A DNA stretch of 64,000 nt. Source: Myxococcota bacterium. GTDB taxonomy: Bacteria > Myxococcota_A > Polyangia > Polyangiales > Polyangiaceae. The notes beneath the pieces are model-generated. The model had not been told where the DNA came from and searched no databases. It saw only the letters and a program-made list of their open reading frames with translations. The stretch covers positions 34,331 to 98,330 of the forward strand of contig JBCCLB010000015.1 of NCBI GenBank assembly GCA_039027095.1, read 5' to 3'. Below are positions 9,186 through 22,252 of this stretch, in pieces. Each line of letters opens with the position of its first letter. The stretch's first letter is position 1. The position numbers and the translations under genes were made by a program.

Positions 9186-9219
9186 CTTGTTTCTCACCGT
9201 GGCGTCGGGGCCCACCGGG

Positions 9220-10731
9220 CTACTGGGCGGCCGCGAGCTCGGGGCCCATGTGGGCCAATGGATCGATCTCATCGAAGAGCTCGGTGAAGTGCGCGAGCAA
9301 GAGCTGGCGCGCCAGCAGTCGCTTGTACCGAGCCGACCCGCGCACGTCGTCGATCGGCGTGGCTTCCCCCGCCGCGATGCTGAGCGCTTCTCCCACCACG
9401 GCGGGCGAGAGGCGTTTCCCCTGGAGAAAGATCCCGGTGCGCGTGAGCAGCTTGGGGGTGGGACCGACCCCGCCCATGCTGATCGCCGCGTGGGTCAGTA
9501 CGCCCGCCTCCCGCTCGAAGCGTGCGCCCGAGCACACGCTCGCGATGTCGAGCGCCTTGCGCTTCGATACCTTTTCGAAGTTGGTGAGGGTGTGCGCCGT
9601 CTCCCGAGCGAGGCGGATTTCGACGAGCAACTCGCCGGGGCGCTTGTCGAGTTGCTTGTAGCCTCGATAGAGATCACGAAGCGCGACGTCGCGGCGATCG
9701 TCGCCCTCCGCCAGCACGAGGGTCGCCCCGAGGGCGAGCAGGAGGTTGGTCATGTCGCCGATGGGCGAGGCGTTGACGATGTTTCCGCCGAGGGTGGCCC
9801 GATTGCGGATCGGTCGCGATGCAATGAGCCAGAGAAATCGATCGATACGAGGTACGAGGCGGCGGACGGCCTCGTGCTCGGCGAACTCGGTAAACGTCGT
9901 GAGCGCCCCCAGACTGAGGACCGGCCCTTCTTCGCGAATGCCGCGAATCCGAGGGTATTGCGCCGCGACGTCGTCCGCGGTGAGGAGACGGACCGGAGCC
10001 CCGGGGATTTCGGCGCCGCGCTGAACGTAGAGGTCGGTGCCTCCGGCGAGAAACAGGGGGGTGGGTGGCGTCGGCGCCGCGGGGGGAGGGGCGGGCGACA
10101 TTTCGGGTGACATTTCGGGTGACATTTCCGCCAGACGGTCACCGATCGAGGCGAAGTAGGACGGCAGGAGCTCGGCCTCGACGAGGGCGGGAAGGCGGTC
10201 GCCCTCGGGGGGACCCTTGGCCTTTACGGTCGCGAGGATGGCGTCGGCCGCCCTTTCGATGGCGTTGTACCCGGTGCATCGGCAGAGGTTGCCGCTGATG
10301 GCTTCGCGCATGCCTTCCCGCGACAAGTCGGCCCCCTCGGTCACGATCACGTACCACGTCATCGCGACGATGAATCCCGGGGTGCAGTAGCCGCACTGGG
10401 TGCCGCCATGGTGCACCATTTCTTCTTGCACCACGCTCAGCCGGCGTCCGGCCTGCCGGGACCGGGTGAGGTTGAGTCCCTCGACGGTGACGACGTGTTT
10501 GCCCGCCATTTCTCCGAGGGGCACGAGGCAGGCCGTCATCAATTCGTACCGCGGGCGACCGCCGTCGAGGGCGCCGACGAGAATTGCGCAGGCGCCGCAA
10601 TCGCCCTCCTTACAGCCTTCTTTGGTGCCCGTGAGTCGGCGTTCGCGTACGAAGTCGAGGACGAGGCGGCCGCGTGGCGCGTCCGTCTCCACGACTTCAT
10701 CGTTCAGCATGAAGGTCGTCGTCGCTCCCAT
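9220..10731 (-). CDS. xdhA: xanthine dehydrogenase small subunit (2x[2Fe-2S] + FAD-binding domain)
   Basis: Contains CKEGDCGACA (plant-type 2Fe-2S), GTQCGYCTPG...CRCTGY (second 2Fe-2S) and LFLAGGTDLYVQ (FAD domain). Size and gene order match bacterial xdhABC. Confidence 0.9.
   Translation of the reverse strand: MGATTTFMLNDEVVETDAPRGRLVLDFVRERRLTGTKEGCKEGDCGACAILVGALDGGRPRYELMTACLVPLGEMAGKHVVTVEGLNLTRSRQAGRRLSVVQEEMVHHGGTQCGYCTPGFIVAMTWYVIVTEGADLSREGMREAISGNLCRCTGYNAIERAADAILATVKAKGPPEGDRLPALVEAELLPSYFASIGDRLAEMSPEMSPEMSPAPPPAAPTPPTPLFLAGGTDLYVQRGAEIPGAPVRLLTADDVAAQYPRIRGIREEGPVLSLGALTTFTEFAEHEAVRRLVPRIDRFLWLIASRPIRNRATLGGNIVNASPIGDMTNLLLALGATLVLAEGDDRRDVALRDLYRGYKQLDKRPGELLVEIRLARETAHTLTNFEKVSKRKALDIASVCSGARFEREAGVLTHAAISMGGVGPTPKLLTRTGIFLQGKRLSPAVVGEALSIAAGEATPIDDVRGSARYKRLLARQLLLAHFTELFDEIDPLAHMGPELAAAQ
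10097..10132. repeat. 12-bp in-frame tandem repeat (3 copies) inside the xdhA inter-domain linker
   Basis: The sequence gacatttcgggt gacatttcgggt gacatttccgcc encodes EMSPEMSPEMSP on the reverse strand. It lies between the Fe-S and FAD domains. Confidence 0.9.
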
Positions 10732-10927: not shown

Positions 10928-12505
10928 TCAGCGGGATGGTCGCGTGCTCGGGTGGGGGCGGCGACGCGGGACCGACCGCCGCTCTGTCCACCGCCCCTCT
11001 GTCCACCAGCGGTCGGCATCGGCGGTGGTCCACGTCGGATACGCCTCCGACGCCATCAGCGCCTCGGCGACCGTGCGGGCATCCTCGAAGCGATCGGACG
11101 GGTTCTTCTCGAGCAGGCGAAGAATCACCACCTCGAGTTTCTCGTCGATGGCCATCCCGAGTCGTTTCGATGGCGGCACGGGGCAGGAATGCAGGTGATG
11201 GCTACACACCTCGACCGCCGTCTTGCCGACGAATATGTCTTCGCCGGTTACCAAAAAGTAACCGAGTGCGCCCAGGGCGTAGAGGTCCACCGGGGGGCCG
11301 ACCCGGTCGGGGTCCGTAATCGTCTCGGGCGCGAGGTAGCCCGGGGTTCCCGCCACCACGTCGGCCTCGGTGAGATGGCGGCCGCCGGCGGGCTCGACTT
11401 CTTTGACGAGCCCGAAGTCGAGCACTTTCACCACGTCGGGCATCTCGGCGAGGTGGCATAGAAATACGTTGGCCGGCTTGATGTCGCGATGAACCAGGCC
11501 GTGACGGTGCGCTTCGTGAAGCGAGCCGCAAATCTGCGTCAGAATACGGGCGACGCGACCCGCGGGTTGGGGACCATCGCGCTCGACCAATTCGGCGAGG
11601 TCGATCCCGTCGAGCAGCTCCATCGCGTAATAGAACACGCCCTCCTCACTGCGCCCGAAGTCGTAGATGTGCACGGTGTTAGGGTGATGGAGTTCACTCG
11701 TGAGCTGCACTTCCCGCTCGAAACGACGCGCCGCGAGGTCGCCCGTCTTTTCGGCGGGAAGCAGCTTCACCGCCGTGGGGCGGCGCAACATCGCGTGTTG
11801 CGCTCGGTACACGATGCCCATGCCGCCTTCGCCGATCTTTTCCTTCAGCGTGTACTGGCCGAGCCGCTCAGCTGTTTTCGCCCGCTCGCGCAGCCCGCTC
11901 ACGATGGACGAGCCGTAACCCGCGAGCCCCGACGCGATGACGGCGGACGTGGCCACGGCGGCGGTTTGAATTGCGGGGGCGACGACCTGGGTCGCAGGCA
12001 TCCGCCACGCCAAGTACGCCTGGACGGCCACGAGAGGCGCGAAACACGCCAGTGAGACCCCCACCGTGCGCTGGCCTGAACTCGGGATGATGAGGGCCCG
12101 GCCGAACACGAGAAACCCCACGAATACGATCCCCATGTAGGGACCGACGCGAAGGTCGCGATTCAGGTACACGGTGCCGGCGAGAAGCGCCGCGGGATCG
12201 GTGACGCAGGCGACGTCGGCCCAGCGTGCGACCTTGGGGCTCCAGCGGCCGCGGGCCGCCGACCGCCAAAGACCGCCCATGAAAACGAGGGCCAGCCCGA
12301 TCACGAGAAAGCTGCCGGGCCTGATGCGCTGGCCCGTCTGCGTCAGCACCCGGGTCATGCCCATGGCCGTGCCTTGCACGAGCATCACCCCCAACATGGC
12401 CCGCGCGAACATCGCGACGCGCTCCTGCAAGAACGCGCGCCCCGCTTGCGTGGAGACGTCGATGGCGGCCCCACGAAATCCGATGGGGAGGGGAACGGTG
12501 GTCAT
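10928..12505 (-). CDS. membrane-embedded Ser/Thr protein kinase (polytopic N-terminus, C-terminal Hanks kinase domain)
   Basis: Kinase motifs GEGGMGIVYRA, AVKLL, HRDIKPANVF, DFG and GTPGYLAPE. About 220 N-terminal residues carry several hydrophobic helices. ATG 12505 overlaps the polX stop (ATGA). The track ORF extension to 13600 overlaps polX in another frame. Confidence 0.9.
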   Translation of the reverse strand: MTTVPLPIGFRGAAIDVSTQAGRAFLQERVAMFARAMLGVMLVQGTAMGMTRVLTQTGQRIRPGSFLVIGLALVFMGGLWRSAARGRWSPKVARWADVACVTDPAALLAGTVYLNRDLRVGPYMGIVFVGFLVFGRALIIPSSGQRTVGVSLACFAPLVAVQAYLAWRMPATQVVAPAIQTAAVATSAVIASGLAGYGSSIVSGLRERAKTAERLGQYTLKEKIGEGGMGIVYRAQHAMLRRPTAVKLLPAEKTGDLAARRFEREVQLTSELHHPNTVHIYDFGRSEEGVFYYAMELLDGIDLAELVERDGPQPAGRVARILTQICGSLHEAHRHGLVHRDIKPANVFLCHLAEMPDVVKVLDFGLVKEVEPAGGRHLTEADVVAGTPGYLAPETITDPDRVGPPVDLYALGALGYFLVTGEDIFVGKTAVEVCSHHLHSCPVPPSKRLGMAIDEKLEVVILRLLEKNPSDRFEDARTVAEALMASEAYPTWTTADADRWWTEGRWTERRSVPRRRPHPSTRPSR

Positions 12506-14271
12506 GACCCCAGCCCCCGACGCGCGCGTTTTCTCTGCCGCCACGACATGAACCGCTCGCGGCTCCACGTGTTTACGATCCGTGCGGGGTCGAGCCACGC
12601 GCGACGGCAATGGATCCGCCCCCAATCCATGCGCATCAATTCTCGGTGATGGTGCGCGTCGGAGGTCATGATGAAGACGACGTCGCGGTCGCGGGCGCGC
12701 CGGAGGATGGCGACGCTCACGTCGAGACGGGGTAGCCCGCAGTTCACTTCGAGCGCCGTTTCCGTACGCTCCGCCGCGTCGAAGATCGCATCGAGGTCGA
12801 GGTCGACCGGAGGGCGTTTGCCGATGGTCCGACCGGTGAGGTGTCCGATCATCTGCACCGAAGGGTCCTCCATGGCGCGGATGAGCCGTTGGGTTTGGGC
12901 GTCGCGCGGTAGGTCGAAGTGGCTGTGGATCGACGCCAGACACCAGTCGAGGCTCATCCGAAAGTCGAGGTCGTAGTCGAGACTCCCGTCTCGGCCGATG
13001 TTGAGTTCGGCGCCGTGGAGCACCGTGAGGGTGTCGTCCGAGAGGGCTTCGATTTCGGCGCGTTGGGCCGCGAGCTGGGCCCGGGGAACGCCCTGCCGGG
13101 GGATGTCCTCGGCGTGTTCGGTAATGGCGAGGTAGCGGTATCCGCGCGCGCGTGCGGCCGCGACCACCTCGGCGAGCGGGCTCCGGCCGTCTCCGCTCAA
13201 GTCCGTGTGGACGTGAAGGTCGCCGAACACCGAACCCACCGGTGGGGGCAGGCGATGGGCCTCGGCGGCTTCGATCTCCCCCGCGTCTTCGCGCAGCTCG
13301 GGGGCGATCATGTCCAGGCCGAGGGCGTGGTAGATCTCTTCCTCGGTTTCCGCCGCGATGGTCGCGCCGGTGCGGGCGCACGCGAGGCCATACTCGTTGA
13401 GGGTTTGACCCCGCGCCAGCGCCCGTTGGCGGAGCTTGACGTTGTGCGCCTTGCTCCCGGTGAAGTAGAGCAGCGCCGCGCCGTACTGATGGGGGGCGAC
13501 CACCCGCATGTCGATCTGGAGGCCCTTGCGCGTCGACACGCTCGTCTTCTTGTCGCCGTGGACGAGGACCGCGTCGACCATGCTGAGCTTCGTCAGCCAC
13601 TCCATGATCGGCCGTGGGTCCGCCTCGCTCACCACGAGCAGGTCGAGGTCGCCGATCGTCTCCTGAAAGCGGCGCAAACTGCCGGCGTACGCCGCGTCGC
13701 GGACGTCATCCCGCGCGCGAAGGGCGGCGATGAGCCGTTGGGCAATGGGCATCGCCTTGGCGATCGCGATCCGACGGGGTGTCGACGGGGCGCCATCCGT
13801 CCCCGCCTCGCCCAGCCCGAGCCGCTCGAGGGTGGCTTTGAGCTTTTCTTCCTTTTTGGCCCCGAAACCCGCGAGTCCTCGGAGCCGCTGCCCTTCGAGG
13901 GCGTCGCGTAGTGCAGCGATCGACGTGACGCCCAACTCGCGACGGAGCTTGTCGACCGCTTTCGGTCCGATCCCCGGGATCTGGCTCAAGGCGACGACCG
14001 AGGGCGGGTACGCTTCGCGCAACCGGTCGAGCTGATCGAGATGGCCCGTGTCGAGAAAGGTCCGGATCTTCTTCGCCGTGCTCTTGCCGATGCCCTCGAC
14101 CGAGATGAGCTCTTTCTCGCCCATCGCTTCGATGTCTCCGACGAGCGACGCCACCGCGCGCGCGGCGCGTTCGTACGCGCGGACCCGGAACGCCTGTGGA
14201 CTCTGCTCGTCGAGGGTCGTGAGCTCGGCGAGCTCACGGAGCAAGTCCACGACGTCCGGTTTGCGATCCAT
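12502..14271 (-). CDS. polX: DNA polymerase X family protein with C-terminal PHP domain
   Basis: HhH motifs (GIGKSTAKKI, GIGPKAVDKL), nucleotidyltransferase segment GSLRRFQETIGDLDLLV, and PHP motifs DLHVHTDLSGDG, ITEHA, TSDAHH. Confidence 0.9.
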   Translation of the reverse strand: MDRKPDVVDLLRELAELTTLDEQSPQAFRVRAYERAARAVASLVGDIEAMGEKELISVEGIGKSTAKKIRTFLDTGHLDQLDRLREAYPPSVVALSQIPGIGPKAVDKLRRELGVTSIAALRDALEGQRLRGLAGFGAKKEEKLKATLERLGLGEAGTDGAPSTPRRIAIAKAMPIAQRLIAALRARDDVRDAAYAGSLRRFQETIGDLDLLVVSEADPRPIMEWLTKLSMVDAVLVHGDKKTSVSTRKGLQIDMRVVAPHQYGAALLYFTGSKAHNVKLRQRALARGQTLNEYGLACARTGATIAAETEEEIYHALGLDMIAPELREDAGEIEAAEAHRLPPPVGSVFGDLHVHTDLSGDGRSPLAEVVAAARARGYRYLAITEHAEDIPRQGVPRAQLAAQRAEIEALSDDTLTVLHGAELNIGRDGSLDYDLDFRMSLDWCLASIHSHFDLPRDAQTQRLIRAMEDPSVQMIGHLTGRTIGKRPPVDLDLDAIFDAAERTETALEVNCGLPRLDVSVAILRRARDRDVVFIMTSDAHHHRELMRMDWGRIHCRRAWLDPARIVNTWSRERFMSWRQRKRARRGLGS

Positions 14272-14341
14272 CCCGCGGTTTTGAGCGCTCGCGGCCGGCG
14301 TTTCAAGCCGGACGGCGCGCGCGGGCCCCGGTCGTGGCCCT

Positions 14342-14782
14342 TCAGAAGGGGGCGGACGTCGGGTTCTCGAGAATGTGGGGCACTTCCCCGCAATGAACCG
14401 AGGGGCTGCCCACCTCGGGGTAGGACTTCAGGATGTAGTCGGCGAGGTCGTTGCAGGTCGCGCCGCTGCCGCAATGGGCCACGTAGGCCGCGCCGCTTTC
14501 CTGAAATCGGGTGTCGTACTGGCGAAAGCTCACCTTCTGGGCCACCCCCGGCTCGTAGTCCGCCACCATGAAAAAGCGGCCGGCCTGGGACTTCACGGCG
14601 CTCTCGATGGCCTGCCAGTAGCGGTCGTGGTTGCCGTCCTGCGAGGCCATGAGGATGGCGTGCGCGTTGATGCAGTTGCCGGCGGTCTTCGACACACTTC
14701 CCGCCGCGTTTCCGTTCTGTACGGCCAAACCAAACGTCGCCAGCGCAGCCCCGCCCAACAGCAAATGCTTATTCATCATCAT
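14342..14782 (-). CDS. small secreted Cys-containing protein, unknown function
   Basis: Signal peptide MMMNKHLLLGGAALATFGLAVQNGNAAG and four Cys. An AAGGGAGA Shine-Dalgarno abuts three consecutive ATGs, so the exact start is 14776-14782. The track ORF is trimmed from 15112. Confidence 0.7.
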   Translation of the reverse strand: MMMNKHLLLGGAALATFGLAVQNGNAAGSVSKTAGNCINAHAILMASQDGNHDRYWQAIESAVKSQAGRFFMVADYEPGVAQKVSFRQYDTRFQESGAAYVAHCGSGATCNDLADYILKSYPEVGSPSVHCGEVPHILENPTSAPF

Positions 14783-14927
14783 TCTCCCTTTGGGCGCGGA
14801 CGCTACGATCGGGCGTCGGGCAGGGCAAGGGCCAACCGGCAGGGTTTCTTGCCTCCAGGGGGACCTCGGTGCGATCCTGCGTGCCCATGAGGTCCAACCG
14901 ACACGGCGGTCCGGACGGTGCGACGGC

Positions 14928-15734
14928 ATGAAGTCGATCGCCGTCGCCAGTCCCAAGGGAGGGGTCGGAAAGACCACCGTGGCGCTCCAGCTGGCCCACG
15001 CCCTCGTCAAGCGGCACCACCGCGCCTTGCTCGTGGACGGCGATCCCCAGGGCGCGATCGGCCTGTCGCTGTCGCCCAAACTCAACGCCGTACCCGGGTT
15101 CTCCGCGTTCATCGCCGAGGGGCGTCCGCTCGCGGAGGTCGTGGTGCCGACCCGCGTCGATGGCTTCGCGCTGCTTCCGGTGGGCCGGATCGGCCCGTAC
15201 GAGACCGAAGCCTTTGGGGCGGCGCTCGCGAGCGGAGAGCGACTGCGGCGCTTGGTCGACGAGGCCGCGGCCGACTACGACGTCGTGCTCTTCGACACCC
15301 CGAGCGGGTTTGGGGGGATCACGACCGGGGTGCTTCGCGCGGTGTCCTATGCCGTCTCGCCGCTCCAGGCCGAGCCGGTGGCGCTGCGAGCGCTGACGCA
15401 ACTTCTCGAAATGGTTCAGGTCTTGCGGCAAGAGGGGGCGGCCGTGCGGCTGGTCGGGCTCATCGTGACGATGCTCCAGGTCCGCAACGAGCATTCCTTC
15501 GACGTGGCCCGGGAACTGTTGGACCAATTCCCGCCCGACCTCCTCTTCAGTGCCAACGTGCCGCGTGACCCGGTGTTTTTGGAGGCGACGGCGAAAGGGG
15601 TCCCCGTCGGTCTGCTCCGTCGCCCCGCGCCGCCGGTGACGCACGTGTTCGACCTCATCGCGGCCGAGCTCGAGGAGCGGATGGGTCTGGTGGAGCAAGC
15701 GAGGAGCGATGAGCCCCAGCCTTTCCTGGTTTGA
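14928..15734 (+). CDS. ParA/MinD-family P-loop ATPase
   Basis: Begins MKSIAVASPKGGVGKTTVAL (deviant Walker A with signature Lys) and contains LLVDGDPQG and VVLFDTPSG. 268 aa. First gene of the five-gene cassette. Confidence 0.9.
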   Translation: MKSIAVASPKGGVGKTTVALQLAHALVKRHHRALLVDGDPQGAIGLSLSPKLNAVPGFSAFIAEGRPLAEVVVPTRVDGFALLPVGRIGPYETEAFGAALASGERLRRLVDEAAADYDVVLFDTPSGFGGITTGVLRAVSYAVSPLQAEPVALRALTQLLEMVQVLRQEGAAVRLVGLIVTMLQVRNEHSFDVARELLDQFPPDLLFSANVPRDPVFLEATAKGVPVGLLRRPAPPVTHVFDLIAAELEERMGLVEQARSDEPQPFLV

Positions 15735-16554
15735 GCCCATGGAGGTGAGCACGTTGCTCGGCGAACTTCCCGCGCGGAAAGAGGCCGTCAATCGCTTCGC
15801 GGGCATGGCGCGACGCGACCCCGGGCGGTTTGCGACCTCGGTGTCGACCCAGCCCGGGCCGGTGCCCGCGGCCGATGACGAGGACCACGACGAGGATTTC
15901 GACGCCAAGGCGACGCGTCTGGCGGCGGGGGCCGCGCGTCGTCCGGGGGGTGGATTTCCGCCGGCCGAGCCGATCCCATCGACGGCCGACGGGCCGCCGC
16001 GCGTGACCAAGCCACGACGCCACCGGGGCACGATCACGGCGCCCCCGTCTTCGTCGGAGCCCGACGGATACCCGGAGTCGGCCGATGTCCCTTCGTCGCG
16101 CCCCGCGCCGGTTCCTCCGTTCGTGGCGCCGCTTGGACCTTTCGAAGCGCGGCTCGAAGCCCTGCTCCAGTGGTGCCTCAGCGGTTGGACGGCGCCCGGG
16201 TTGCGCGGCGGGGCGGTGGCCGACCACGACGGGCTCCCGGTCGCCTTGGTGCCCCCGCCCGCGGGATCGGTTCCCATCGAACCCTCGTGGGCGCCGCTCG
16301 TCGCGGGCGCGCTCGAAGCGGCGGTTCAGGCGCTCACGGCGAGTGGGACCATCAAGGAGGGCCAGATCGCCTTCGAACGCGACGAGGGGAGCCGATGGGC
16401 GGCGGCGTGGGTCCCCGCCGTCGCGGGGCGACGGTGGTTCTTGCTGCTCTGGGGACGCGATGTGCCGACCGGGGTGCCTTGGGCGGCCATGATCGACGCG
16501 TTTCGCGAAGTATGTCGACGCGGACGCCACGAGCGAGGAGTCGGGACGTCGTGA
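15709..16554 (+). CDS. Roadblock/LC7 (MglB-like) domain protein with disordered acidic/Pro-rich N-terminal half
   Basis: The C-terminal ~130 aa (LEALLQWCLSGWTAPGLRGGAVADHDGLPVALV...GQIAFERDEGSRWAAAWVPAVAGRRWFLLLWGRDVPTGVPWAAMIDAFREV) has the Roadblock pattern; the assignment is by eye. ATG 15709 is preceded by GAGGAG and lies 26 nt inside the ParA-like gene. Alternative ATG at 15739. Confidence 0.65.
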   Translation: MSPSLSWFEPMEVSTLLGELPARKEAVNRFAGMARRDPGRFATSVSTQPGPVPAADDEDHDEDFDAKATRLAAGAARRPGGGFPPAEPIPSTADGPPRVTKPRRHRGTITAPPSSSEPDGYPESADVPSSRPAPVPPFVAPLGPFEARLEALLQWCLSGWTAPGLRGGAVADHDGLPVALVPPPAGSVPIEPSWAPLVAGALEAAVQALTASGTIKEGQIAFERDEGSRWAAAWVPAVAGRRWFLLLWGRDVPTGVPWAAMIDAFREVCRRGRHERGVGTS

Positions 16555-17609
16555 ACGAAGGGTTGCGGATCCGGTTGGAGGAGACGCGGGTGCTCCTGAG
16601 CCTGAGCCTGGTCGCTCCGGGCACGGCGGGGGGGCGCACCGTTTCCGACCGGTGGGTTCGAAGCGGCGCGTCGGGGTCTTCCCACGCCGGTGGGAGCGAC
16701 CCTACGTCGGAGGCCCGGGCCCTCGAGCTGGCGCGGTCGTTCGACATCGTGGCGGGCGCAGACCGCGCCGTCGACGCGATGCTCACCGCGGAAACGGACG
16801 TCGAGCTGGCCGTCGTCGTGCCCAGGGGCGCGACGGATCTCGCGGTCCTCTCCTTTCGCCCCTCGACCCCGCTCGGGCTCGTGCGGCTCATCGTCGCGCG
16901 GGCCCGCCCGTGGCTGGAGGAGGGCGCAAATGCGGCGTCCCCGCCGTCGGTCAAGCCGATCGAGCCGGTCGTGGCGCCCTCCGGCCCCCCGATCACGGCG
17001 TCGTACGAAGGCGCGCCCTCCCCTGCGACCGATGATGAGGACGTTCGACCGGGACTCCCGCCTCCCACCCAGCCGCCTGGGCCCGTCGGTGACCCCCGAC
17101 CCGAGCCGCCGCGCGAGACACAAACGCCGGGCGACACCGGACCGCCGGCGCCTCCGCTCGTGGCGGCGCGGCAGCCCCAAGCGGCGCCGACGTTGACGAG
17201 CCCGTCCCAGTTCCAGGCCGCGTCGAAAACGGTGGCGCGCGATGCGGCGGCGCCTCCGGCGGCGATGCGATCCGATTCGGCGCCGCCCCTCCTCGGGCCC
17301 TCGGGCGGCGCGGGACCCGGGTCTGGTGGAGGCGGCGACAGCGCGCGCTTCGCCGGACCCCCGGCGGGGGCGACACGGCCGACCACCACCCTCTCCGAGG
17401 CGTCGTCGGAGGCGGCGGCGCGGGGCGTTCGGCTCCTCGCGTACCTCGATGCCCACGCCGATGATGCGCATCTCGCCTTGCTGCGCGTGTCGCTTCAGAC
17501 CGGCCTCAGCATCGAGACGCTGCGCGCTCCCGAGGCGCTCGATGAGGACGCGTTGGAGTTCGTGGCGGCCTCCGTCCGTCGGATCCTGGGGCGCCCGCTG
17601 GAGATGTGA
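16551..17609 (+). CDS. Roadblock/LC7 (MglB-like) N-terminal domain protein with long Pro-rich linker and small C-terminal helical domain
   Basis: The N-terminal ~125 aa ends DLAVLSFRPSTPLGLVRLIVARARPWLEE, which closely resembles the MglB C-terminal strand/helix (SLGLVRLRIKKA, recalled from memory). GTG 16551 overlaps the upstream stop (GTGA) and has GAGGAG 10 nt upstream. Alternative ATG at 16512. Confidence 0.7.
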   Translation: MNEGLRIRLEETRVLLSLSLVAPGTAGGRTVSDRWVRSGASGSSHAGGSDPTSEARALELARSFDIVAGADRAVDAMLTAETDVELAVVVPRGATDLAVLSFRPSTPLGLVRLIVARARPWLEEGANAASPPSVKPIEPVVAPSGPPITASYEGAPSPATDDEDVRPGLPPPTQPPGPVGDPRPEPPRETQTPGDTGPPAPPLVAARQPQAAPTLTSPSQFQAASKTVARDAAAPPAAMRSDSAPPLLGPSGGAGPGSGGGGDSARFAGPPAGATRPTTTLSEASSEAAARGVRLLAYLDAHADDAHLALLRVSLQTGLSIETLRAPEALDEDALEFVAASVRRILGRPLEM

Positions 17610-18862
17610 CCATGTCCGCCCTGCTCTACGACCACCGCGATGCGCTCCCCCAGCACCACCTCCGGTTCTTCGCCGGGTCGGCGGTCGTGGTGCAGCACCC
17701 CTCCTTCCTCGCGGCCTTCGACCAGGTCGTCGACGACGCGCTCGGGCCGTCCCGCGGTCCCGCCAGTCGTCTCCGCTGCGCGCAACAAGCGAGTCGTCCT
17801 CTCCTCAAGCGGCTCGTCCATCGCATGTTGCCGACCTCGCCCGCACAGCGCCTCGACATCGCGCGACAGGTGTTCGCCGCCCTCGGACTGGGCCAGCTTT
17901 CTCTCGACGTCACGCCGGCCGGCGGTCGGGCGCGCGTACGCCACCCATTTCGTCTGTCCCTCGAGCCCGCGACGACCGGGGGGCCGGGCCGACCGTGGCC
18001 CCTCGATGCGATCGCGGGCGGCTTTGCCGGGGCCGCCACCGAGGTCGCCTTCGATCTTCCCTCGGGACTCATCGCCGTCGTGCCCGAAGCGTTGGGCCCC
18101 GAGGGTTCGTTTCGGCTCGACGCGAGGGGCACCGCGATGGAGGTGCGCACGCCGCACCAAGCGCAGATCCGAGAGCTCGTTCCGAGCAGCTTTGGGGGCC
18201 TGCACGAGGACCGCATCGCCGAGCGGTCCATCGACGCCCTGGCCCGCATCGAGGGAGCCGCTGGCGACGACCGGGGTGACCTGCGGGATCGGGACCAACG
18301 GCTCGCCTTCGTCCCGGCCGACTACGGACATGCTCTGACCCATCACCTTTTGGCGACGGTCACGGAGGAAAAGCCCAAGGCCCTGCCCGCCGCGCGGGCC
18401 TTGCTCGCGGAGGCGGGGTACACGCACGCCTTTCTCGGGCTCGGTCGCGCGCTCGCGGCCGGGGGAACCGCCTTGGCCGCGGGGGGGCGCTCGCCGCTGG
18501 AGGTACTGGTCGACGGCTTGGCCGTGGCGCGCGCCTGGGGGTGGGGACGCTGGTGCGTGGAGGTCTTCGTCCCCGAGGAGCGCCTCGTCCTCAGGAGCCC
18601 GGGCACCCCGGAGAGCCTCTACGTGGCCTGCACGGTCGAGGGCGCCGACCGGCCGCAAGCCCACGCGCTGGAAGGGGCGGGGGTGGCGCTGATGGACCTC
18701 GCCCACCGGACGGAGTGGACGCCCACCCCGAACCTCGACGCGCGCACGGTCACCGCGAATCGGCGGGCGCCGACGTGGACGGCGACCGTCACCCACAGCG
18801 TGGCGGTTGGGGATCCGGTCGACCGCGTGGTGGTCCAGCGGATCGACGGAGCGTCGCCGTGA
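17606..18862 (+). CDS. hypothetical protein of two similar halves (possible V4R-like ligand-binding repeats)
   Basis: Strong G/C third-position bias in this frame. GTGA overlaps at both ends (17606-17609 and 18859-18862). The halves AALGLGQLSLDVTPAGGRARV...LDAIAGGFAGAATEVAF and ARAWGWGRWCVEVFVPEERLVLR...HALEGAGVALMDLAH share a pattern. The antisense ORF 17495..18796 is rejected. Confidence 0.7.
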   Translation: MTMSALLYDHRDALPQHHLRFFAGSAVVVQHPSFLAAFDQVVDDALGPSRGPASRLRCAQQASRPLLKRLVHRMLPTSPAQRLDIARQVFAALGLGQLSLDVTPAGGRARVRHPFRLSLEPATTGGPGRPWPLDAIAGGFAGAATEVAFDLPSGLIAVVPEALGPEGSFRLDARGTAMEVRTPHQAQIRELVPSSFGGLHEDRIAERSIDALARIEGAAGDDRGDLRDRDQRLAFVPADYGHALTHHLLATVTEEKPKALPAARALLAEAGYTHAFLGLGRALAAGGTALAAGGRSPLEVLVDGLAVARAWGWGRWCVEVFVPEERLVLRSPGTPESLYVACTVEGADRPQAHALEGAGVALMDLAHRTEWTPTPNLDARTVTANRRAPTWTATVTHSVAVGDPVDRVVVQRIDGASP

Positions 18863-19413
18863 CGTGCGTCGTCGGTTTGGTCGCCGGCGGCCGCGTCTAC
18901 GTCGGGGTCGATTCCGCCGCGGTCGCGGGCTGGACCCGACGGGTGACGGAGGTGAAGAAGGTCTTTCGCCGGGGGCCCTTTCTCATCGGCTACACCACCA
19001 GCTTCCGCATGGGGCAATTGCTCGAACACCAATTGGAGGTCCCCAAACAGCCGGCCGGGGCGAGCGACATCTCGTTCATGGTGACCACGTTCGTCGACGC
19101 CGTGCGGACGCTCTTCAAGGAAAAGGGGTTCGCGAAGGTCGAGAGCAACAGCGAGTCCGGGGGACAATTCATCGTGGGCTACCGGGGGGGGCTCTACACC
19201 ATCGAGAGTGACTTTCAGGTCCAACTCCAGGCCGACCGATTCGACGCGATCGGCAGCGGCAGCGCCCACGCCCTCGGGGCGATGGACGTCCTGCGCGACC
19301 TCGCGCCGACCCCGCGTATCAAGCGGGCGCTGGCGGCCGCCGCGCACTTCAACATGGGGGTATGCCCCCCGTTTTTCGTGCGCTCGATGGCGGGCCCCAA
19401 GCGGGGGTCCTGA
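18859..19413 (+). CDS. HslV/proteasome-beta-like Ntn hydrolase (T1-type Thr peptidase), orphan
   Basis: The GTG start gives M-TCVVGLVAGGRVYVGVDSAAVAGWTRRVTEVKKVFRR. After Met removal this places Thr1, Asp17 and Lys33 exactly in proteasome numbering. A later AIGSGSAHALGAMD matches the GSG(G/S) motif of HslV and beta subunits. 184 aa, HslV-sized. Track ORF 18541..19413 is trimmed to the GTGA junction. Confidence 0.8.
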   Translation: MTCVVGLVAGGRVYVGVDSAAVAGWTRRVTEVKKVFRRGPFLIGYTTSFRMGQLLEHQLEVPKQPAGASDISFMVTTFVDAVRTLFKEKGFAKVESNSESGGQFIVGYRGGLYTIESDFQVQLQADRFDAIGSGSAHALGAMDVLRDLAPTPRIKRALAAAAHFNMGVCPPFFVRSMAGPKRGS

Positions 19414-19417
19414 GCGT

Positions 19418-19563
19418 TATAGTGTCGGTCAAATCGGTAGATTTGACCGGCCCAAAAAGTAAGGCACCCCCAAGACAATAGAACCGGCTCTGAGGAGCGA
19501 TGCTCGCCCTCGCCGACTTGTCGGCGAGCATCGCGACACCATCAACGGTTGTGGTCGAGGGTG
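19418..19563 (+). repeat. 146-bp intergenic element, copy B (sense orientation on plus strand), directly upstream of 19583..20284
   Basis: 141/146 identical to the reverse complement of 10750..10895. It starts with TATAGT 4 nt after the upstream stop codon. It contains hairpin ggtcaaatc-ggta-gatttgacc (19427-19448) and a 12-bp-stem palindrome gcgatgctcgcc/ggcgagcatcgc (19497-19534). It ends 19 nt before ATG 19583. Confidence 0.9.
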
Positions 19564-19582
19564 CAGGCGGGTTTCAGGAGAC

Positions 19583-20284
19583 ATGGCAGACATCCCCGAG
19601 CCGAACGACGACGATCCCGAAGACGTCCGCTGGGCCTTGTCTACCGCCGAGCGATTGGTGGCGACGGGGGCCCGGGAGGCGGCCGCGCGGTGGCTGCGGC
19701 GGGCGGCGTCGGCCGCGCGTGACCACGATCGGGGCGACCGTGCGGAAGAGATCGACACCGCCGCCCGGAATTGGGACACCCCCGCCGCGGCGGGGATCGA
19801 TGACGAGGCGACGGTGGTGTCGACGACCCCCGAGGTCGCGCTCGCGCCGGAGGGACGGAGGTCACGATCGACGAAACCGTCGACGGCGAGCCGGACGCCG
19901 GCGTCGCGCCTCGTCGTCGACTCGGTGCTGCCGCCTTCCACCGAGCGCGAACCGCGCATCGTGACCCGTCGGGCCGGGGTTCGGGACACCGCGGAAGACA
20001 CCCGGATACCGGCCGTCGTGCGCGCGACGGCGCGTGACGACGCGAGCACCCTTCCGCCGACCTCTTCTTCGCCGCCCGCGGGGACCGTCGGCGAGTCTTC
20101 GGACACGATGATGTCGTACTCCCGCTATCGGGTGGCGGTGCTTGCGTCCTCCGACGATGCGCATCCTCGGCTGCTCCGGCTCCGCGACGGAGAAGCGGCG
20201 CCCCCCGGAGCCGCCATGGCGTTTCTCGTGCCGGAGTCGGCCGAGGATGGGGCCGCCATCGCGGCCCTGTTCGAGCTCGGCTGA
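19583..20284 (+). CDS. hypothetical, largely low-complexity acidic/Arg-rich protein
   Basis: ATG is preceded by AGGAGA. G/C third positions. N-terminal helical segment (VRWALSTAERLVATGAREAAARWLRRAASAAR), then a Ser/Thr/Pro/Arg-rich region. No family recognised. Confidence 0.6.
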   Translation: MADIPEPNDDDPEDVRWALSTAERLVATGAREAAARWLRRAASAARDHDRGDRAEEIDTAARNWDTPAAAGIDDEATVVSTTPEVALAPEGRRSRSTKPSTASRTPASRLVVDSVLPPSTEREPRIVTRRAGVRDTAEDTRIPAVVRATARDDASTLPPTSSSPPAGTVGESSDTMMSYSRYRVAVLASSDDAHPRLLRLRDGEAAPPGAAMAFLVPESAEDGAAIAALFELG

Positions 20285-20324
20285 ACGCCTCGACCGCGCG
20301 CACCAGGGTGCCCGGGGTCGACCC

Positions 20325-21002
20325 TCAGCGCGAAGCCTGGAAATGCCGTTGGACGCGCTGCAGCACGATTTCGAGCTGTGCTTCCGCGTCGGCCTCCTCG
20401 AAGGCGTACCCGGGCGTTTCGTCGAGGGCGCAGTACCCGTCCCACTTGCATTCGCCGCTCGCGCACTCGAGGTCGGAGCGACAGGCGGGCCGCAACAGGC
20501 GGTAGCGGGGGCATCCCACGAAGTCGGGGGGGCAGTCCGCGACATCGTGGCACTGCTTGGGGGTAGGGGCTCCGGGGAGACCTCGCGCCCCGCCCGTCAA
20601 CTCGCCGACCACGGTGGCCACGTAGGGGAACTCCGGCGAGCCGCTGTCGAGCACGATTTCGCTTGCGTGGTCGAGGGCGACGAAAAAATACCGGGTCGGC
20701 CCGGTCACGGTGCTGACCTGGCGGCAGGAGACTTCACCCGTCCACGTATGCCCCTGCCGCGCGAGCTCGACCGGTTGCCAGGTGCCCGAGCCCCAGGTTC
20801 GGACGAGGGCCACCACATGCTCGGCCTGGTAGCTCGAAGGCAGTCGCACGCGCATCGGGAGCGGCGTCAGAACCTCCTGCTGCGCGACGTATTCGATGCT
20901 CGGATGCGTCGGGTCTTTGTCGCGCACGTACTCGGCCGCCGTCGGCGCGCAGGCGGAGCAGGTCCACGCGGCGATGGCCATGCTGCTGGTTCTGATCCCC
21001 AT
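20325..21002 (-). CDS. hypothetical protein with Cys-rich C-terminus
   Basis: C-terminal CHDVADCPPDFVGCPRYRLLRPACRSDLECASGECKWDGYC resembles myxobacterial Cys-rich repeats. The start is uncertain (ATG 21002 or 20981). The track ORF extends to 21356 into alaX in another frame. Confidence 0.6.
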   Translation of the reverse strand: MGIRTSSMAIAAWTCSACAPTAAEYVRDKDPTHPSIEYVAQQEVLTPLPMRVRLPSSYQAEHVVALVRTWGSGTWQPVELARQGHTWTGEVSCRQVSTVTGPTRYFFVALDHASEIVLDSGSPEFPYVATVVGELTGGARGLPGAPTPKQCHDVADCPPDFVGCPRYRLLRPACRSDLECASGECKWDGYCALDETPGYAFEEADAEAQLEIVLQRVQRHFQASR

Positions 21003-21055: not shown

Positions 21056-22252
21056 TCAGCGCCGGGCCCGATACGTGTCGAGAAATGCGCGCCATGGCGT
21101 CCCCGCGGGAAGGCGCGCCTCGGCCCGATGAGGGCGACCTCCTCCGCGCCCGTCGTGCTCGGCGCACAGCGCGCGTACGAACGCGCCACAGTCGAACGTC
21201 GCCTCCTCCCCGCGAACGGCGAGCACCACCACCGCAACGTCGTCCTCCCCGGTGGCGGCGGCGACCACGGTCGTGCGGCGGGGATGGCGGGCGGCGCGCT
21301 TGCCCACTTCGCGCACCAAGTCGACCGGCGCCTCGGCGAGGTCGAGCACTTGCCACTCAGTGTCGTGGTCGAGCAGGTGCTCACTCATCTGTTCGCACAG
21401 CCCTTTCAACTGGCGGGTGCGGCGACGCTGCTCGGCCTGGAGGCGCGCGACGGCGGACGGGACTTCGGTCGGTGCGGTCGACAATTCGCGCCCCAGCGCC
21501 CGCAGCGCGCTCGACTCGGCTTGCGCCAACGCCCGCGCCTTGTGCCCGGCGGCGAAGTGGATGCGCAGCCGTCGCTTATGCCGCTCGGTCCCGAGCAGGG
21601 TCACCAACCCCACCGCCGACGTGTGGCCGCAGTGGGTGCCGCCGCAGGGCGTGATGTCGACGTCGCCGATCGCGACGACGCGCACATCACGGGACACGGA
21701 TGGCGCTTTGCGCAACGGGAGACGGGCGAGCTCGTCGGGCGCGGGAAAGTAGGCGCGAATGGGGACGTCCCGATCCACGACGTCGTTGGTCCAGGCGAAT
21801 ACGGCGGCCAAGGCGCTCGGCTCCAGGTGCTCGCGGTCGACGTCGACCGTGCAACCGGAGGCGCCGAGCCGCGAGGACACGGTGATGGCGCCGACCTCGT
21901 CGAGCAAAGCCCGTGACAAGATGTGCTGACCGGTGTGCTGGGCCATGTGAAGGCGGCGTCGCGCCGCGTCGATGTGACCCTCGACCGAGGCGCCGTTCTG
22001 CACGTCGGGGGGAACCGACCTCGTCAGGACATGCGCGACCTCGCCATCGGTGCCGATCTGAACGTCGGCCACCTCGAGGTCGTGGCCCGCCACCGACAGC
22101 ACGCCTCGGTCGGCCAGCTGTCCCCCCGATTCCGGATAGAACGCGGAGCGGTCGAGCACGAGGGCCGGGCGCTCGCCATGCGCGATCACTGCCACCACGT
22201 GCGCGGTGAACGCGAGGCGCAGTGAATCCGCGTAGTGCAACCGCTCCGTCAT
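21056..22252 (-). CDS. alaX: alanyl-tRNA editing protein, AlaX-L type
   Basis: HTGQH (HxxxH) and CGGTHC (CxxxH) zinc motifs of the Ala/Thr-tRNA synthetase editing domain. 398 aa. Confidence 0.85.
   Translation of the reverse strand: MTERLHYADSLRLAFTAHVVAVIAHGERPALVLDRSAFYPESGGQLADRGVLSVAGHDLEVADVQIGTDGEVAHVLTRSVPPDVQNGASVEGHIDAARRRLHMAQHTGQHILSRALLDEVGAITVSSRLGASGCTVDVDREHLEPSALAAVFAWTNDVVDRDVPIRAYFPAPDELARLPLRKAPSVSRDVRVVAIGDVDITPCGGTHCGHTSAVGLVTLLGTERHKRRLRIHFAAGHKARALAQAESSALRALGRELSTAPTEVPSAVARLQAEQRRRTRQLKGLCEQMSEHLLDHDTEWQVLDLAEAPVDLVREVGKRAARHPRRTTVVAAATGEDDVAVVVLAVRGEEATFDCGAFVRALCAEHDGRGGGRPHRAEARLPAGTPWRAFLDTYRARR

Follow-up and report, generated by a model that had tools for sequence, protein, structure and literature searches.

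Five genes packed closely on the forward strand of a 64,000-nucleotide stretch of Myxococcota DNA (here called the window) encode a ParA/MinD-type ATPase, two Roadblock proteins, an internally duplicated protein, and a proteasome-like protease, and the question that they raise is whether they form one system. A sequence-only reading had proposed that they do, as a single functional cassette in which the ATPase and the Roadblock proteins control the protease. The window sequence matches the Myxococcota MAG GCA_038745455.1 (contig JBCDLJ010000102). All five open reading frames, designated g1 to g5, have a GC3 of 0.82 to 0.90, which fits the coding expectation for a genome of approximately 70% GC. 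The coordinates and junctions described earlier were found as reported: the ATG of g2 at position 15709 lies 26 nt inside g1, and GTGA is seen at 16551 to 16554, 17606 to 17609, and 18859 to 18862. Since the 26-nt overlap was kept in every orthologous operon examined that has both genes, it is not a product of chance. The proposed start/stop overlap at 17606 to 17609 held only in part: the GTGA is present, but g4 most likely starts at ATG 17612, as judged from a GGAG 8 nt upstream, from homologues that begin at the aligned methionine, and from the 416-amino-acid (aa) product returned by gene callers (418 aa from GTG 17606). With this start, g3 and g4 would be spaced by 2 nt and would not overlap. 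The tight packing agrees with the proposed single coupled transcription unit, and g1 to g5 are probably cotranscribed in this genome.

The fold assignments suggested earlier for the five proteins all held. g1 (14928 to 15734; 268 aa) is a ParA/MinD-type P-loop ATPase. As previously noted, it carries the deviant Walker A motif SPKGGVGKTT (14949 to 14978, read from the sequence) along with DGDPQG and FDTPSG; the signature lysine of this Walker A motif is a mark of ParA/MinD dimers. SPKGGVGKTT (S8, K10, G11 to K15, and T17) and DGDPQG were invariant across nine orthologues. Pfam matches to AAA_31 (4e-24), CbiA (9e-17), CBP_BcsQ (2.5e-16), and ParA (2e-10) all exceeded the curated cutoffs, and the best PDB sequence matches were ParA/Soj proteins (8ray, 3.7e-24; 1wcv, 3.6e-23). 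Compared with the leading gene of each orthologous operon, g1 was 51 to 86% identical (mean column identity, 71%), and these orthologues are assigned to a distinct orthologous group. The Soj/ParA matches would also suit a ParABS-like DNA-partition system or a BcsQ-like system positioning polysaccharide secretion, with g2 and g3 as adaptor; the best NCBIfam models for g1 were BcsQ (2.9e-25) and ParA_partition (9.7e-24), and g4 gave weak Foldseek matches to BcsD (E of 0.14 to 0.3). Yet both NCBIfam scores fell far under the curated cutoffs (89 versus 158 bits and 84 versus 180, respectively), a ParB, HTH protein, parS-like repeat, or cellulose-synthase gene was seen in none of the contexts, and the operon is chromosomal and lies among housekeeping genes. 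We consider such a role quite improbable and prefer a positioning or polarity switch, which is set out below.

Neither g2, g3, nor g4 of the window matched any Pfam model at an E value of ≤1, and their folds were assigned from profiles of their families and from moderately confident AF2 models. g2 (15709 to 16554; 281 aa) consists of a conserved N-terminal peptide (MSPSLSWFE..L..LL, in which M1, W7, and L16 are nearly invariant), a Pro/Ala-rich disordered linker, and a C-terminal domain at residues ~140 to 278 (~16126 to 16542) that is predicted by AF2 and Foldseek to adopt the Roadblock/LC7 fold. The AF2 model, built on a 13-sequence alignment, had an overall pLDDT of 58.8 and a domain core of 77 to 90, with the topology a-b-b-a-b-b-b-a; the top 30 Foldseek matches were all MglB or Roadblock proteins (1j3w, 6.4e-5; 9jue; 6h5b), and 2 of 10 homologues matched Robl_LC7 weakly (best E of 0.002). 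g3 (16551 to 17609; 352 aa) has the reverse layout: a putative Roadblock/MglB-like domain at residues 1 to 125 (16551 to 16925), a Pro/Ala-rich linker of ~160 aa, and a strongly conserved C-terminal domain of ~60 aa (~17415 to 17606). Its family profile matched Myxococcus xanthus MglB (5.4e-5), Roadblock 9jue (4.5e-4), and MglC (0.022) in the PDB, and its PLGLVRL motif aligned with SLGLVRLRIKKA of M. xanthus MglB (6izw_B), bearing out the motif equivalence proposed earlier. The C-terminal motif YLDxxAPDTHAALLRVSLQTGLP shows little or no variation among 34 homologues; a fold search with this domain returned only weak LPD22 matches, and no fold was assigned.

g4 (17612 to 18862) belongs to a family with 315 representatives at an E value of ≤1e-3, of which 52 of 75 members matched Pfam V4R (best, 1.9e-20). 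In the PDB, the family profile matched MopR (4e-6) and MJ1460 (2.2e-5); the AF2 model (pLDDT, 70.7; pTM, 0.77) gave as top Foldseek matches the MopR/PoxR/DmpR sensor domains, TRAPP Bet3, and H-NOX, with a TMt of 0.6 to 0.65 to Bet3/TRAPPC3. Aligned with hhalign, the N- and C-terminal halves of the family were homologous (probability, 98.7%; E, 2.8e-16), confirming the two similar halves noticed earlier. From the family profiles and the moderate-confidence model, g4 is thus predicted to be an internal duplication of a V4R/Bet3-like domain, that is, a built-in pseudodimer. V4R is homologous to TRAPP Bet3 (PMC2253512, PMC10933270). Since g4 is closest to phenol-sensor domains in both sequence and structure searches, the operon might mainly serve small-molecule sensing, g4 binding a ligand and signaling through the Roadblock proteins to the ATPase as a sensor instead of a constitutive scaffold. 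The Cys/His pattern of the V4R zinc site is preserved in most of the family (consensus HCHHYN ... CxAxGDxxCxF), and ligand binding has been proposed for Asgard TRAPPC3/V4R proteins (PMC10933270), both in keeping with a sensor. Against it, the zinc-site cysteines are missing from the window g4, which has HSVAVGDPVDRVVV at the family-consensus site TxCxAxGDxxxExVV, and from its close relatives, all of which still retain the operon; no ligand-related enzyme genes recur nearby; and the Bet3-type relatives of g4 are scaffolds. We therefore regard a primarily sensory role as unlikely, and a scaffolding g4 within a positioning switch as the better reading.

g5 (18859 to 19413; 184 aa) is a compact Ntn hydrolase of the proteasome-beta/HslV/BPH type. 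It begins M-T-C, carries D17 and K33 in mature numbering, and has G-S-G, residues that align with Thr1, Asp17, Lys33, and GSG of Escherichia coli HslV, in accordance with the register proposed earlier. Its family profile matched HslV (1g3i, 1.4e-4) and BPH (5ovu, 8.5e-4), both at full length from Thr1, and g5 matched phrog_1040, annotated "peptidase HslV family" (3.9e-25). Like HslV, BPH, AAH, and PPH (Fuchs et al. 2021, PMC8665760), it has a compact fold of ~180 aa with Thr1 straight after the methionine and no propeptide; unlike HslV proper, it matched nothing in Pfam or NCBIfam at an E value of ≤1, was not recovered by tblastn with E. coli HslV, and has no HslU. A tblastn search with E. coli HslU gave a best E of 1.7 in the window, where the lack of an AAA+ partner gene had been noted before, and no HslU-like gene in any fetched locus. 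We found 1,268 homologues, with 60 to 83% identity across Polyangia, as well as relatives in 206 phage records (31 to 43% identity); in Polyangia, strong purifying selection acts on g5. g5 is an orphan, and probably self-assembling, Thr protease with no dedicated AAA+ partner. Its family extends to phages, Actinobacteria, alphaproteobacteria, and Firmicutes, a spread also described for the AAH family (PMC8665760), to which g5 would probably belong. That study described uncharacterized proteasome homologues that have neither an AAA+ partner nor an informative genomic context; it does not discuss the Polyangia clade, which is large and strongly conserved.

Could the ParA/MinD switch and its Roadblock proteins then gate or position g5 as a self-compartmentalizing protease, the ATPase replacing the missing AAA+ unfoldase? 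The g4/g5 GTGA overlap leaves no room for a promoter, in the nearest relatives g1 to g4, a PhnD-like gene, and g5 share a strand and lie no more than 36 nt apart, and no HslU-like gene is present, all of which would suit such a system. We surveyed 52 genomic loci with a g5 homologue, most with 10 kb per side. No g1-g4 protein occurred in 50 of them, L054 having only a generic ParA (24% identity), and the sole locus with g1 to g4 was that of the closest relative (L004; g5 identity, 83%). The gene upstream of g5 varies: 5 loci have a PhnD-like gene there, 7 have one for a PlsC-like acyltransferase, and the rest have others. In L004 and in L056 to L058, a 290-aa PhnD-like gene (PF12974) lies between g4 and g5; this pair also exists apart from g1 to g4 (L005, L007, L016, and L020), which marks PhnD-like/g5 as the older arrangement. 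In blastn comparisons, homology between the window and L004 ends at 18835 (L004 9062) and restarts at 18860 (L004 10002), and the junction is the same against L056. The window has thus recently lost ~940 bp carrying the PhnD-like gene, in whose place 24 nt now stand (18836 to 18859), and this loss created the g4/g5 overlap. g5 and g1 to g4 are found together only within one shallow clade, whose g5 proteins share at least 80% identity; the g1-g4 operon is missing from 51 of the 52 g5 loci, and g5 is missing from all eight g1-g4 contexts outside the clade. We also know of no unfoldase activity for any ParA/MinD ATPase. Judged from genome comparison, the missing co-occurrence largely refutes the five-gene switch-protease model, which we hold to be very improbable. 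The region comprises two evolutionarily independent units, the g1-g4 operon and the g5 gene, and by its distribution g5 is not a component of the g1-g4 system; the short gaps on one strand in the window clade may leave room for a lineage-specific functional link.

The four remaining genes do travel together, so that of the gene order whose conservation the sequence-only reading had proposed to check, g1 to g4 co-occur in relatives and g5 does not. Outside the window clade, operons of their homologues were seen in eight contexts (L059, L062 to L067, and L069). The order ParA-like/g2/g3/g4 is identical in L062 to L067, L069, and L004/L056, and L059, whose contig is cut upstream, carries the g2-like, g3-like, and g4-like genes. 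Across these operons, the g1 orthologues share 51 to 57% identity. Searches of the eight contexts with Pfam and tblastn detected neither a g5 homologue nor a Ras-like GTPase. The operon is often followed by a PATAN response regulator gene and preceded by MotA/ExbB-ExbD genes, and DivIC and GGDEF recur as further neighbors. The window clade has neither the PATAN gene nor the small downstream gene nor MotA/ExbD near g1 to g4, so functional hints drawn from neighbors may not apply to the window. One of these operons, with g1 and g2 homologues, encodes a fusion protein (P0242) whose first 120 aa match the g3 family by hhalign (probability, 96.6%; E, 6.6e-10) and are followed by a g4-like part. Gene content and order mark g1 to g4 as a conserved operon of Polyangia, Nannocystales, and related Myxococcota. 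We found no paper describing it, in line with the earlier remark that the gene combination was not a recognized system, and the operon is apparently undescribed so far.

The closest parallels lie in modules that couple Roadblock proteins to P-loop NTPases. The MglA/MglB polarity module of Myxococcus and Thermus (with MglC and RomY) likewise encodes Roadblock/LC7-fold proteins beside a P-loop NTPase in myxobacteria; MglB shares the (S/P)LGLVRL helix motif with g3, the two different Roadblock proteins recall MglB and MglC, and PATAN genes are known neighbors of mglB, with Roadblock dimers serving as GAP/GEF platforms for GTPases (PMC4316618). In contrast, g1 belongs to the SIMIBI-class ParA/MinD ATPases, which switch by dimerizing, and is no Ras-like GTPase; an mglA-like gene does not accompany g1 to g4; g2 and g3 bear long disordered tethers and extra conserved modules; and the tandem V4R protein would be an obligatory partner. 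Actinobacterial conservons (CvnA-D; Mfp) are likewise multigene operons in which a P-loop NTPase is coupled to a Roadblock protein and one more small protein, but their histidine kinase, DUF742 protein, and MglA-like GTPase are all absent here. In the eukaryotic and Asgard TRAPP core and in Ragulator-Rag, a Bet3/V4R-fold pair and Roadblock- or longin-type dimers form an NTPase-regulating platform, and g2 matched LAMTOR in Foldseek (E of ~2e-3). g1 to g4 differ in being a bacterial operon, in having the Bet3-like pair as one duplicated chain, and in combining it with Roadblock instead of longin and with a ParA/MinD NTPase; the likeness may reflect convergent use of old folds. With ParAB, MinDE, PomXYZ, and McdAB, g1 shares all the sequence hallmarks of the family and translationally coupled partner genes, and g2, with its short, conserved N-terminal peptide tethered by a disordered stretch, has the format usual for ATPase-activating peptides (PMC7993993, PomX). 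The g2 peptide is acidic and hydrophobic (SLSWFE/SWIDxxxL), whereas those of PomX, ParB, and MinE are Lys/Arg rich. We know of no ParA/MinD partner with a Roadblock or V4R fold.

From the folds, the gene order, and the one fusion, we infer that g1 to g4 likely constitute a ParA/MinD positioning or polarity switch, partnered by a Roadblock pair and a V4R pseudodimer and adjoining an unrelated orphan proteasome homologue. g1 would be the dimerizing ATP switch. Because Roadblock proteins, to our knowledge, always act as dimers, g2 and g3, with one Roadblock/MglB-fold domain each, would form a heterodimer; the g4 pseudodimer would bind this platform, as the natural fusion of a g3 Roadblock domain to g4 supports. 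By analogy with the MglB, Ragulator, and TRAPP platforms of small GTPases, and with ParB, MinE, and PomX as partners of ParA/MinD ATPases, the Roadblock/V4R complex would be the cognate partner of g1, setting the place and time of ATP hydrolysis or surface release. The strongest candidate for contacting the ATPase is the conserved N-terminal peptide of g2, carried on a long disordered tether; for contact with a cargo or an anchor, it is the conserved C-terminal domain of g3. The recurrent PATAN response regulator, MotA/ExbB-ExbD, DivIC, and GGDEF neighbors point to a role for this switch in the spatial control of envelope, motility, or division machinery.

The five same-strand open reading frames noted by the sequence-only reading were confirmed by ORF calls and a frame plot: g1 (14928-15734), g2 (15709-16554), g3 (16551-17609), g4 (17612-18862) and g5 (18859-19413), all on the plus strand. 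GC3 was 0.82-0.90 in all five proposed frames, in a window with a GC content of ~70%, and the frame switches coincided with the predicted junctions. The junction sequences also contained the expected ATG at 15709, 26 nt inside g1, and the GTGA overlaps at 16551, 17606 and 18859. Based on a GGAG 8 nt upstream, the aligned Met of the homologues and the 416 aa predicted by gene callers, ATG 17612 is a more probable start for g4 than GTG 17606. The NCBI annotation gives g2 a later start (269 aa). All g2 homologues keep the N-terminal motif M-x-x-S-x-S-W-(I/F)-(D/E), which supports the start at 15709 and thus the 26-nt g1/g2 overlap, and an overlap of ~25-26 nt was found in every orthologous operon that has both genes. 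A GC peak of 0.738 (16001-18000) marks the Pro/Ala-rich linkers of g2 and g3 (15800-17500), which span ~130-160 aa in the window clade (the window and its closest relatives, L004 and L056-L058) versus ~40-80 aa in Nannocystales homologues. Scanning 14200-20400 for sigma-70 promoters and terminators was uninformative. The window also matches contig JBCDLJ010000102 of the Myxococcota MAG GCA_038745455.1.

Several features flank these genes. Divergent from g1, a minus-strand gene (14342-14776) encodes a small, probably secreted protein (MNKHLLLGGAALATFGLA...) with four Cys and 90% identity in L004; its neighbours encode a PolX/PHP DNA polymerase (minus strand, 12502-14271) and a Ser/Thr kinase. 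Just past g5, the intergenic spacer is unusually AT-rich and contains, at 19426-19449, a perfect 10-bp inverted repeat, CGGTCAAATC-GGTA-GATTTGACCG. This repeat is not followed by a T run, and L004 and L056 do not share it; an operator or noncanonical terminator role is possible.

As this case cautions, a functional cassette cannot be read from start/stop overlaps by themselves. To ask whether the five genes form one unit, we fetched 52 g5 loci using a g5 alignment against one-genome-per-species contigs, mostly with 10 kb on each side, and searched them with all five window proteins. Only one of the 52, L004, whose g5 is 83% identical, contained g1 to g4. Conversely, the contigs that carry g3 and g4 homologues showed the order ParA-like/g2-like/g3-like/g4-like at seven loci (L062, L063, L064, L065, L066, L067 and L069) and g2-like/g3-like/g4-like at L059, where the contig is cut upstream; none of these eight contexts (L059, L062-L067 and L069) held a g5 homologue. 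The earlier proposal of a single switch-controlled, five-gene protease module is therefore unsupported, as g5 and g1 to g4 do not co-occur in these loci outside the window clade. In L004 and L056-L058, a 290-aa PhnD-like gene (PF12974) separates g4 from g5, and the PhnD-like/g5 pair is also present without g1 to g4 at L005, L007, L016 and L020, indicating that this arrangement is the older one. By blastn, window positions 18836-18859 stand in place of L004 positions 9063-10001, and the g4/g5 GTGA overlap is thus the scar of a ~940-bp deletion.

Other Polyangia clades carry g5 behind a PlsC-like acyltransferase gene (seven loci) or behind other genes, and g5 seems to couple translationally to whichever gene precedes it. 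The PlsC-like gene lies ~0.8-1.0 kb upstream of g5 at L010, L017, L019, L021, L023 and L034, and on the opposite strand at L035; in four such loci there is a 4-nt overlap between its end and the beginning of g5. Further upstream, these loci encode a Cys-rich repeat protein of very large size, and downstream they carry two Hsp20-like genes on the opposite strand. After the PhnD-like/g5 pair there often follow the same 233-273-aa gene and then a convergent AlaX-like gene, and the window has the same arrangement. Its 233-aa protein of unknown function (19583-20284, plus strand) has a conserved N terminus (EDVRWAL..A.RL) and C terminus (SRYRVA.LASSDD.HPR) and accompanies g5 in the PhnD-like/g5 context at seven loci; the AlaX-like (tRNA_SAD) gene lies at 21056-22252 on the minus strand. 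A link to g5 is more plausible for the 233-aa gene than for g1 to g4. Overall, the genomic context of g5 carries no functional signal.

The identification of g5 as an HslV-like Ntn hydrolase, with Thr1/Asp17/Lys33/GSG in register, is supported by alignments. A 22-sequence g5 profile matched Haemophilus influenzae HslV (1g3i) at 1.4e-4 and BPH at 8.5e-4, in both cases over the full length from Thr1 onwards, and g5 matched phrog_1040 ("peptidase HslV family") at 3.9e-25. Among the 22 homologues, M1-T2 never varies, and D18, K34 and G132-S133-G134 vary little or not at all; M-T-C, D18, K34 and G-S-G align with the catalytic residues of Escherichia coli HslV. We found no HslU-like or AAA+ gene in the window or in the ~60 loci searched, and g5 did not match Pfam Proteasome or NCBIfam HslV at E<=1. 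Because it lacks both an HslU and a curated HslV model match, g5 was not assigned to the HslVU proteases. The best explanation for g5 is that it is an orphan member of a compact HslV/BPH-like group of proteasome homologues common to bacteria and phages. We identified 1,268 g5 homologues, with 60-83% identity across Polyangia; relatives occur in 206 phage records, and the loci include Streptomyces, Actinoallomurus, Gluconacetobacter and Clostridium. This phyletic pattern (Actinobacteria, alpha-proteobacteria, Firmicutes and phages) fits the AAH family (representative, WP_035979212), to which g5 probably belongs. Fuchs et al. (2021) likewise reported neither an AAA+ partner nor an informative context (PMC8665760). 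Alternatively, g5 may be a PHD ("Proteasome Homolog of Deltaproteobacteria"); we favor AAH because g5 is compact and HslV/BPH-like. On its own, g5 is a further member of an already known proteasome-homologue group, and it adds a large, strongly conserved Polyangia clade to the uncharacterized phage and bacterial proteasome homologues.

The first four genes form an operon that is conserved and translationally coupled; its products are a ParA/MinD ATPase, two Roadblock-fold proteins bearing long disordered tethers, and a V4R pseudo-dimer. MotA/ExbB-ExbD genes lie upstream of the operon at four loci. Downstream, five loci encode an 83-119-aa "LLWRCDL...GRVQIRLD" protein without a Pfam match, directly after g4 (L059, 2309-2635; L062, 9967-10317; L064, 9982-10320; L066, 4557-4916; L067, 9986-10237). 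At four of these five, the LLWRCDL gene is followed by one for a PATAN (PatA_N/DUF4388) protein, which has a receiver domain in some cases and lacks it in others (one DUF4388 match is weak), and DivIC and GGDEF genes lie further downstream. The window clade lacks both the LLWRCDL and the PATAN protein. At L069 (4443-7698), g1- and g2-like genes share an operon with the gene for a 565-aa fusion protein, P0242, in which a g3-type Roadblock domain (hhalign probability, 96.6%) is joined by a Pro-rich linker to a g4-type tandem V4R. P0242 lacks the g3 C-terminal domain, and the fusion provides a Rosetta-stone argument that g3 and g4 work together. At L065 (645-6214), the genes transcribed divergently from the operon encode a VWA-domain protein and a Tubulin_2 (PF13809) protein of 1,078 aa.

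When the five window proteins were scanned with Pfam, NCBIfam and PADLOC, g1 alone matched, and no link to a defence system was found. The assignment of g1 to the ParA/MinD ATPases held: it carries SPKGGVGKTT (a deviant Walker A with the signature Lys), DGDPQG and FDTPSG, with the Walker A' (switch I) Asp and Walker B Asp in place, and it exceeded the curated Pfam cutoffs for AAA_31 (85.9 bits; cutoff, 27), CbiA (61.7; 25.4), CBP_BcsQ (60.4; 21.3) and ParA (40.9; 27.1). K10, G11-K15, D37, D39 and D123 are invariant among nine orthologues, and the operon orthologues share 51-57% identity with the window protein. No NCBIfam equivalog reached its cutoff, placing g1 outside the named subfamilies BcsQ, MinD and ParA_partition; its closest solved relatives in a PDB sequence search were ParA/Soj proteins. 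Inspection of the C terminus revealed no obvious amphipathic membrane helix.

Since g2 to g5 had no Pfam, NCBIfam or PADLOC match at E<=1, we built family profiles and models for them. For g2, the predicted C-terminal Roadblock/LC7 fold was borne out by its AlphaFold2 topology and by Foldseek. The model, built with 13 homologues, has moderate overall confidence and a core pLDDT of 77-90. It places helix 145-157, strands 165-171 and 177-181 and helix 194-212 in the first half and strands 218-224, 228-236 and 242-249 and helix 255-278 in the second, an a-b-b-a-b-b-b(-a) order that agrees with solved Roadblock structures, and all 28 PDB matches at E<=1e-3 were to MglB or Roadblock proteins. Sequence support for this identity of g2 is weak. 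The window g2 and g3 proteins did not match PF03259 (Robl_LC7) at E<=1, weak PF03259 matches (E, 0.002-0.01) were obtained for 2 of 10 g2 homologues and 2 of 34 g3 homologues, and the g2 profile retrieved only spurious low-complexity PDB matches. As hhalign of the g2 and g3 families was also weak (probability, 17%), we make no purely sequence-based claim that g2 and g3 are homologous.

The family profile of g3 supports the N-terminal Roadblock/MglB-like domain predicted for it. In hmmsearch, the 35-sequence profile matched MglB (6izw/6h5b/6hjm) at 5e-5 to 1e-4, including Myxococcus xanthus MglB at 5e-5, Asgard Roadblock 9jue at 4.5e-4 (positions 15-117) and MglC at 0.022 (positions 3-117); a compact homologue from L059, used as a single PDB query, found MglB below threshold (E, 0.15). 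The ~60-residue C-terminal domain of g3 is very strongly conserved; its sole significant PDB match was a 29-residue motif in 2qe8, a 343-residue uncharacterized protein, and Pfam LPD22 was sub-threshold. A helix-turn-helix reading of this domain was considered and found no support. No gene of the window operon or of the other contexts matched an MglA-like, Ras or Arf Pfam family, and because no cognate MglA-like GTPase lies within a few genes, the operon was not classed as an MglB-type GAP system.

Homologues of g4 numbered 5 in a word-indexed search versus 315 cluster representatives in an exhaustive profile search. The window protein had no Pfam match, and a single-sequence PDB search found nothing; at the family level, 52 of 75 members matched V4R (PF02830; best, 1.9e-20), and the profile found MopR (4e-6), MJ1460 (2.2e-5) and PoxR. 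The AlphaFold2 model (pLDDT, 70.7; pTM, 0.77) best matched the MopR/PoxR/DmpR sensor domains, TRAPP Bet3 and H-NOX in Foldseek (for the sensor domains and Bet3: probability, 1.00; TMt, 0.6-0.68; E, about 8e-3). The two similar halves originally noted in g4 are homologous by hhalign (probability, 98.7%). In V4R domains, a Cys/His (Zn) site links the beta-sheet to the final helix, and the g4 family consensus for it is CxAxGDxxCxF and HCHHYN. Instead of these, HSVAVGDPVDRV, ALGPEGSFRL and VVQHPSF occur in the window protein, which has lost the cysteines of the site.

Roadblock domains form dimers that dock NTPases, for example, MglB-MglA and Ragulator-Rag (PMC4316618, PMC10933270), Bet3/V4R folds are dimeric scaffolds or ligand binders (PMC2253512, PMC10933270), and ParA/MinD ATPases require a hydrolysis-stimulating partner, often acting via a short N-terminal peptide (PMC7993993). 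From this background, we propose that g2 and g3 would form a Roadblock heterodimer, that g4 would bind it, and that g1 would have the resulting complex as its cognate regulator or adaptor, with the N-terminal peptide of g2 as the likely ATPase contact. The neighbouring genes suggest that the output may lie in polarity, motility, envelope or division control. We advance only tentatively, and with some doubt, the view that g1 to g4 represent an undescribed class of bacterial spatial-organization system, whose ParA/MinD ATPase would be under the control of a platform resembling TRAPP/Ragulator and built from a Roadblock heterodimer plus a Bet3/V4R pseudo-dimer. It is similarly conjectural that the platform replaces a ParB-, MinE- or PomX-type activator and that the small "WRCDL" protein and the PATAN response regulator of other lineages are part of the system.

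Full-text literature searches found no paper combining ParA/MinD with Roadblock and V4R, and the operon appears to be undescribed. All part folds, and the logic of an NTPase with a Roadblock platform, are already known; the combination appears to be new. Of the closest known systems, MglA/MglB, conservons, TRAPP and Ragulator differ from g1 to g4 in NTPase class, whereas ParA/MinD systems with activating partners differ in the folds of those partners. To our knowledge, Roadblock/LC7 proteins have so far been linked, as regulators or adaptors, solely to small GTPases (MglB, Ragulator and conservons) and dynein. Eukaryotic TRAPP and Ragulator complexes are based on the combination of Roadblock or longin, Bet3 and an NTPase, which is usually treated as a legacy from archaea. 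"Orphan" MglB homologues were uncharacterized as of 2014 (PMC4316618). If our proposal is correct, Roadblock/Bet3 platforms regulate SIMIBI ATPases besides small GTPases, and such a platform exists in Myxococcota. An operon of this kind, conserved across Polyangia and Nannocystales, would widen Roadblock platforms to the other great P-loop switch class, would supply ParA/MinD biology with a new type of partner, and would be a bacterial case of the Roadblock-or-longin, Bet3 and NTPase fold combination.
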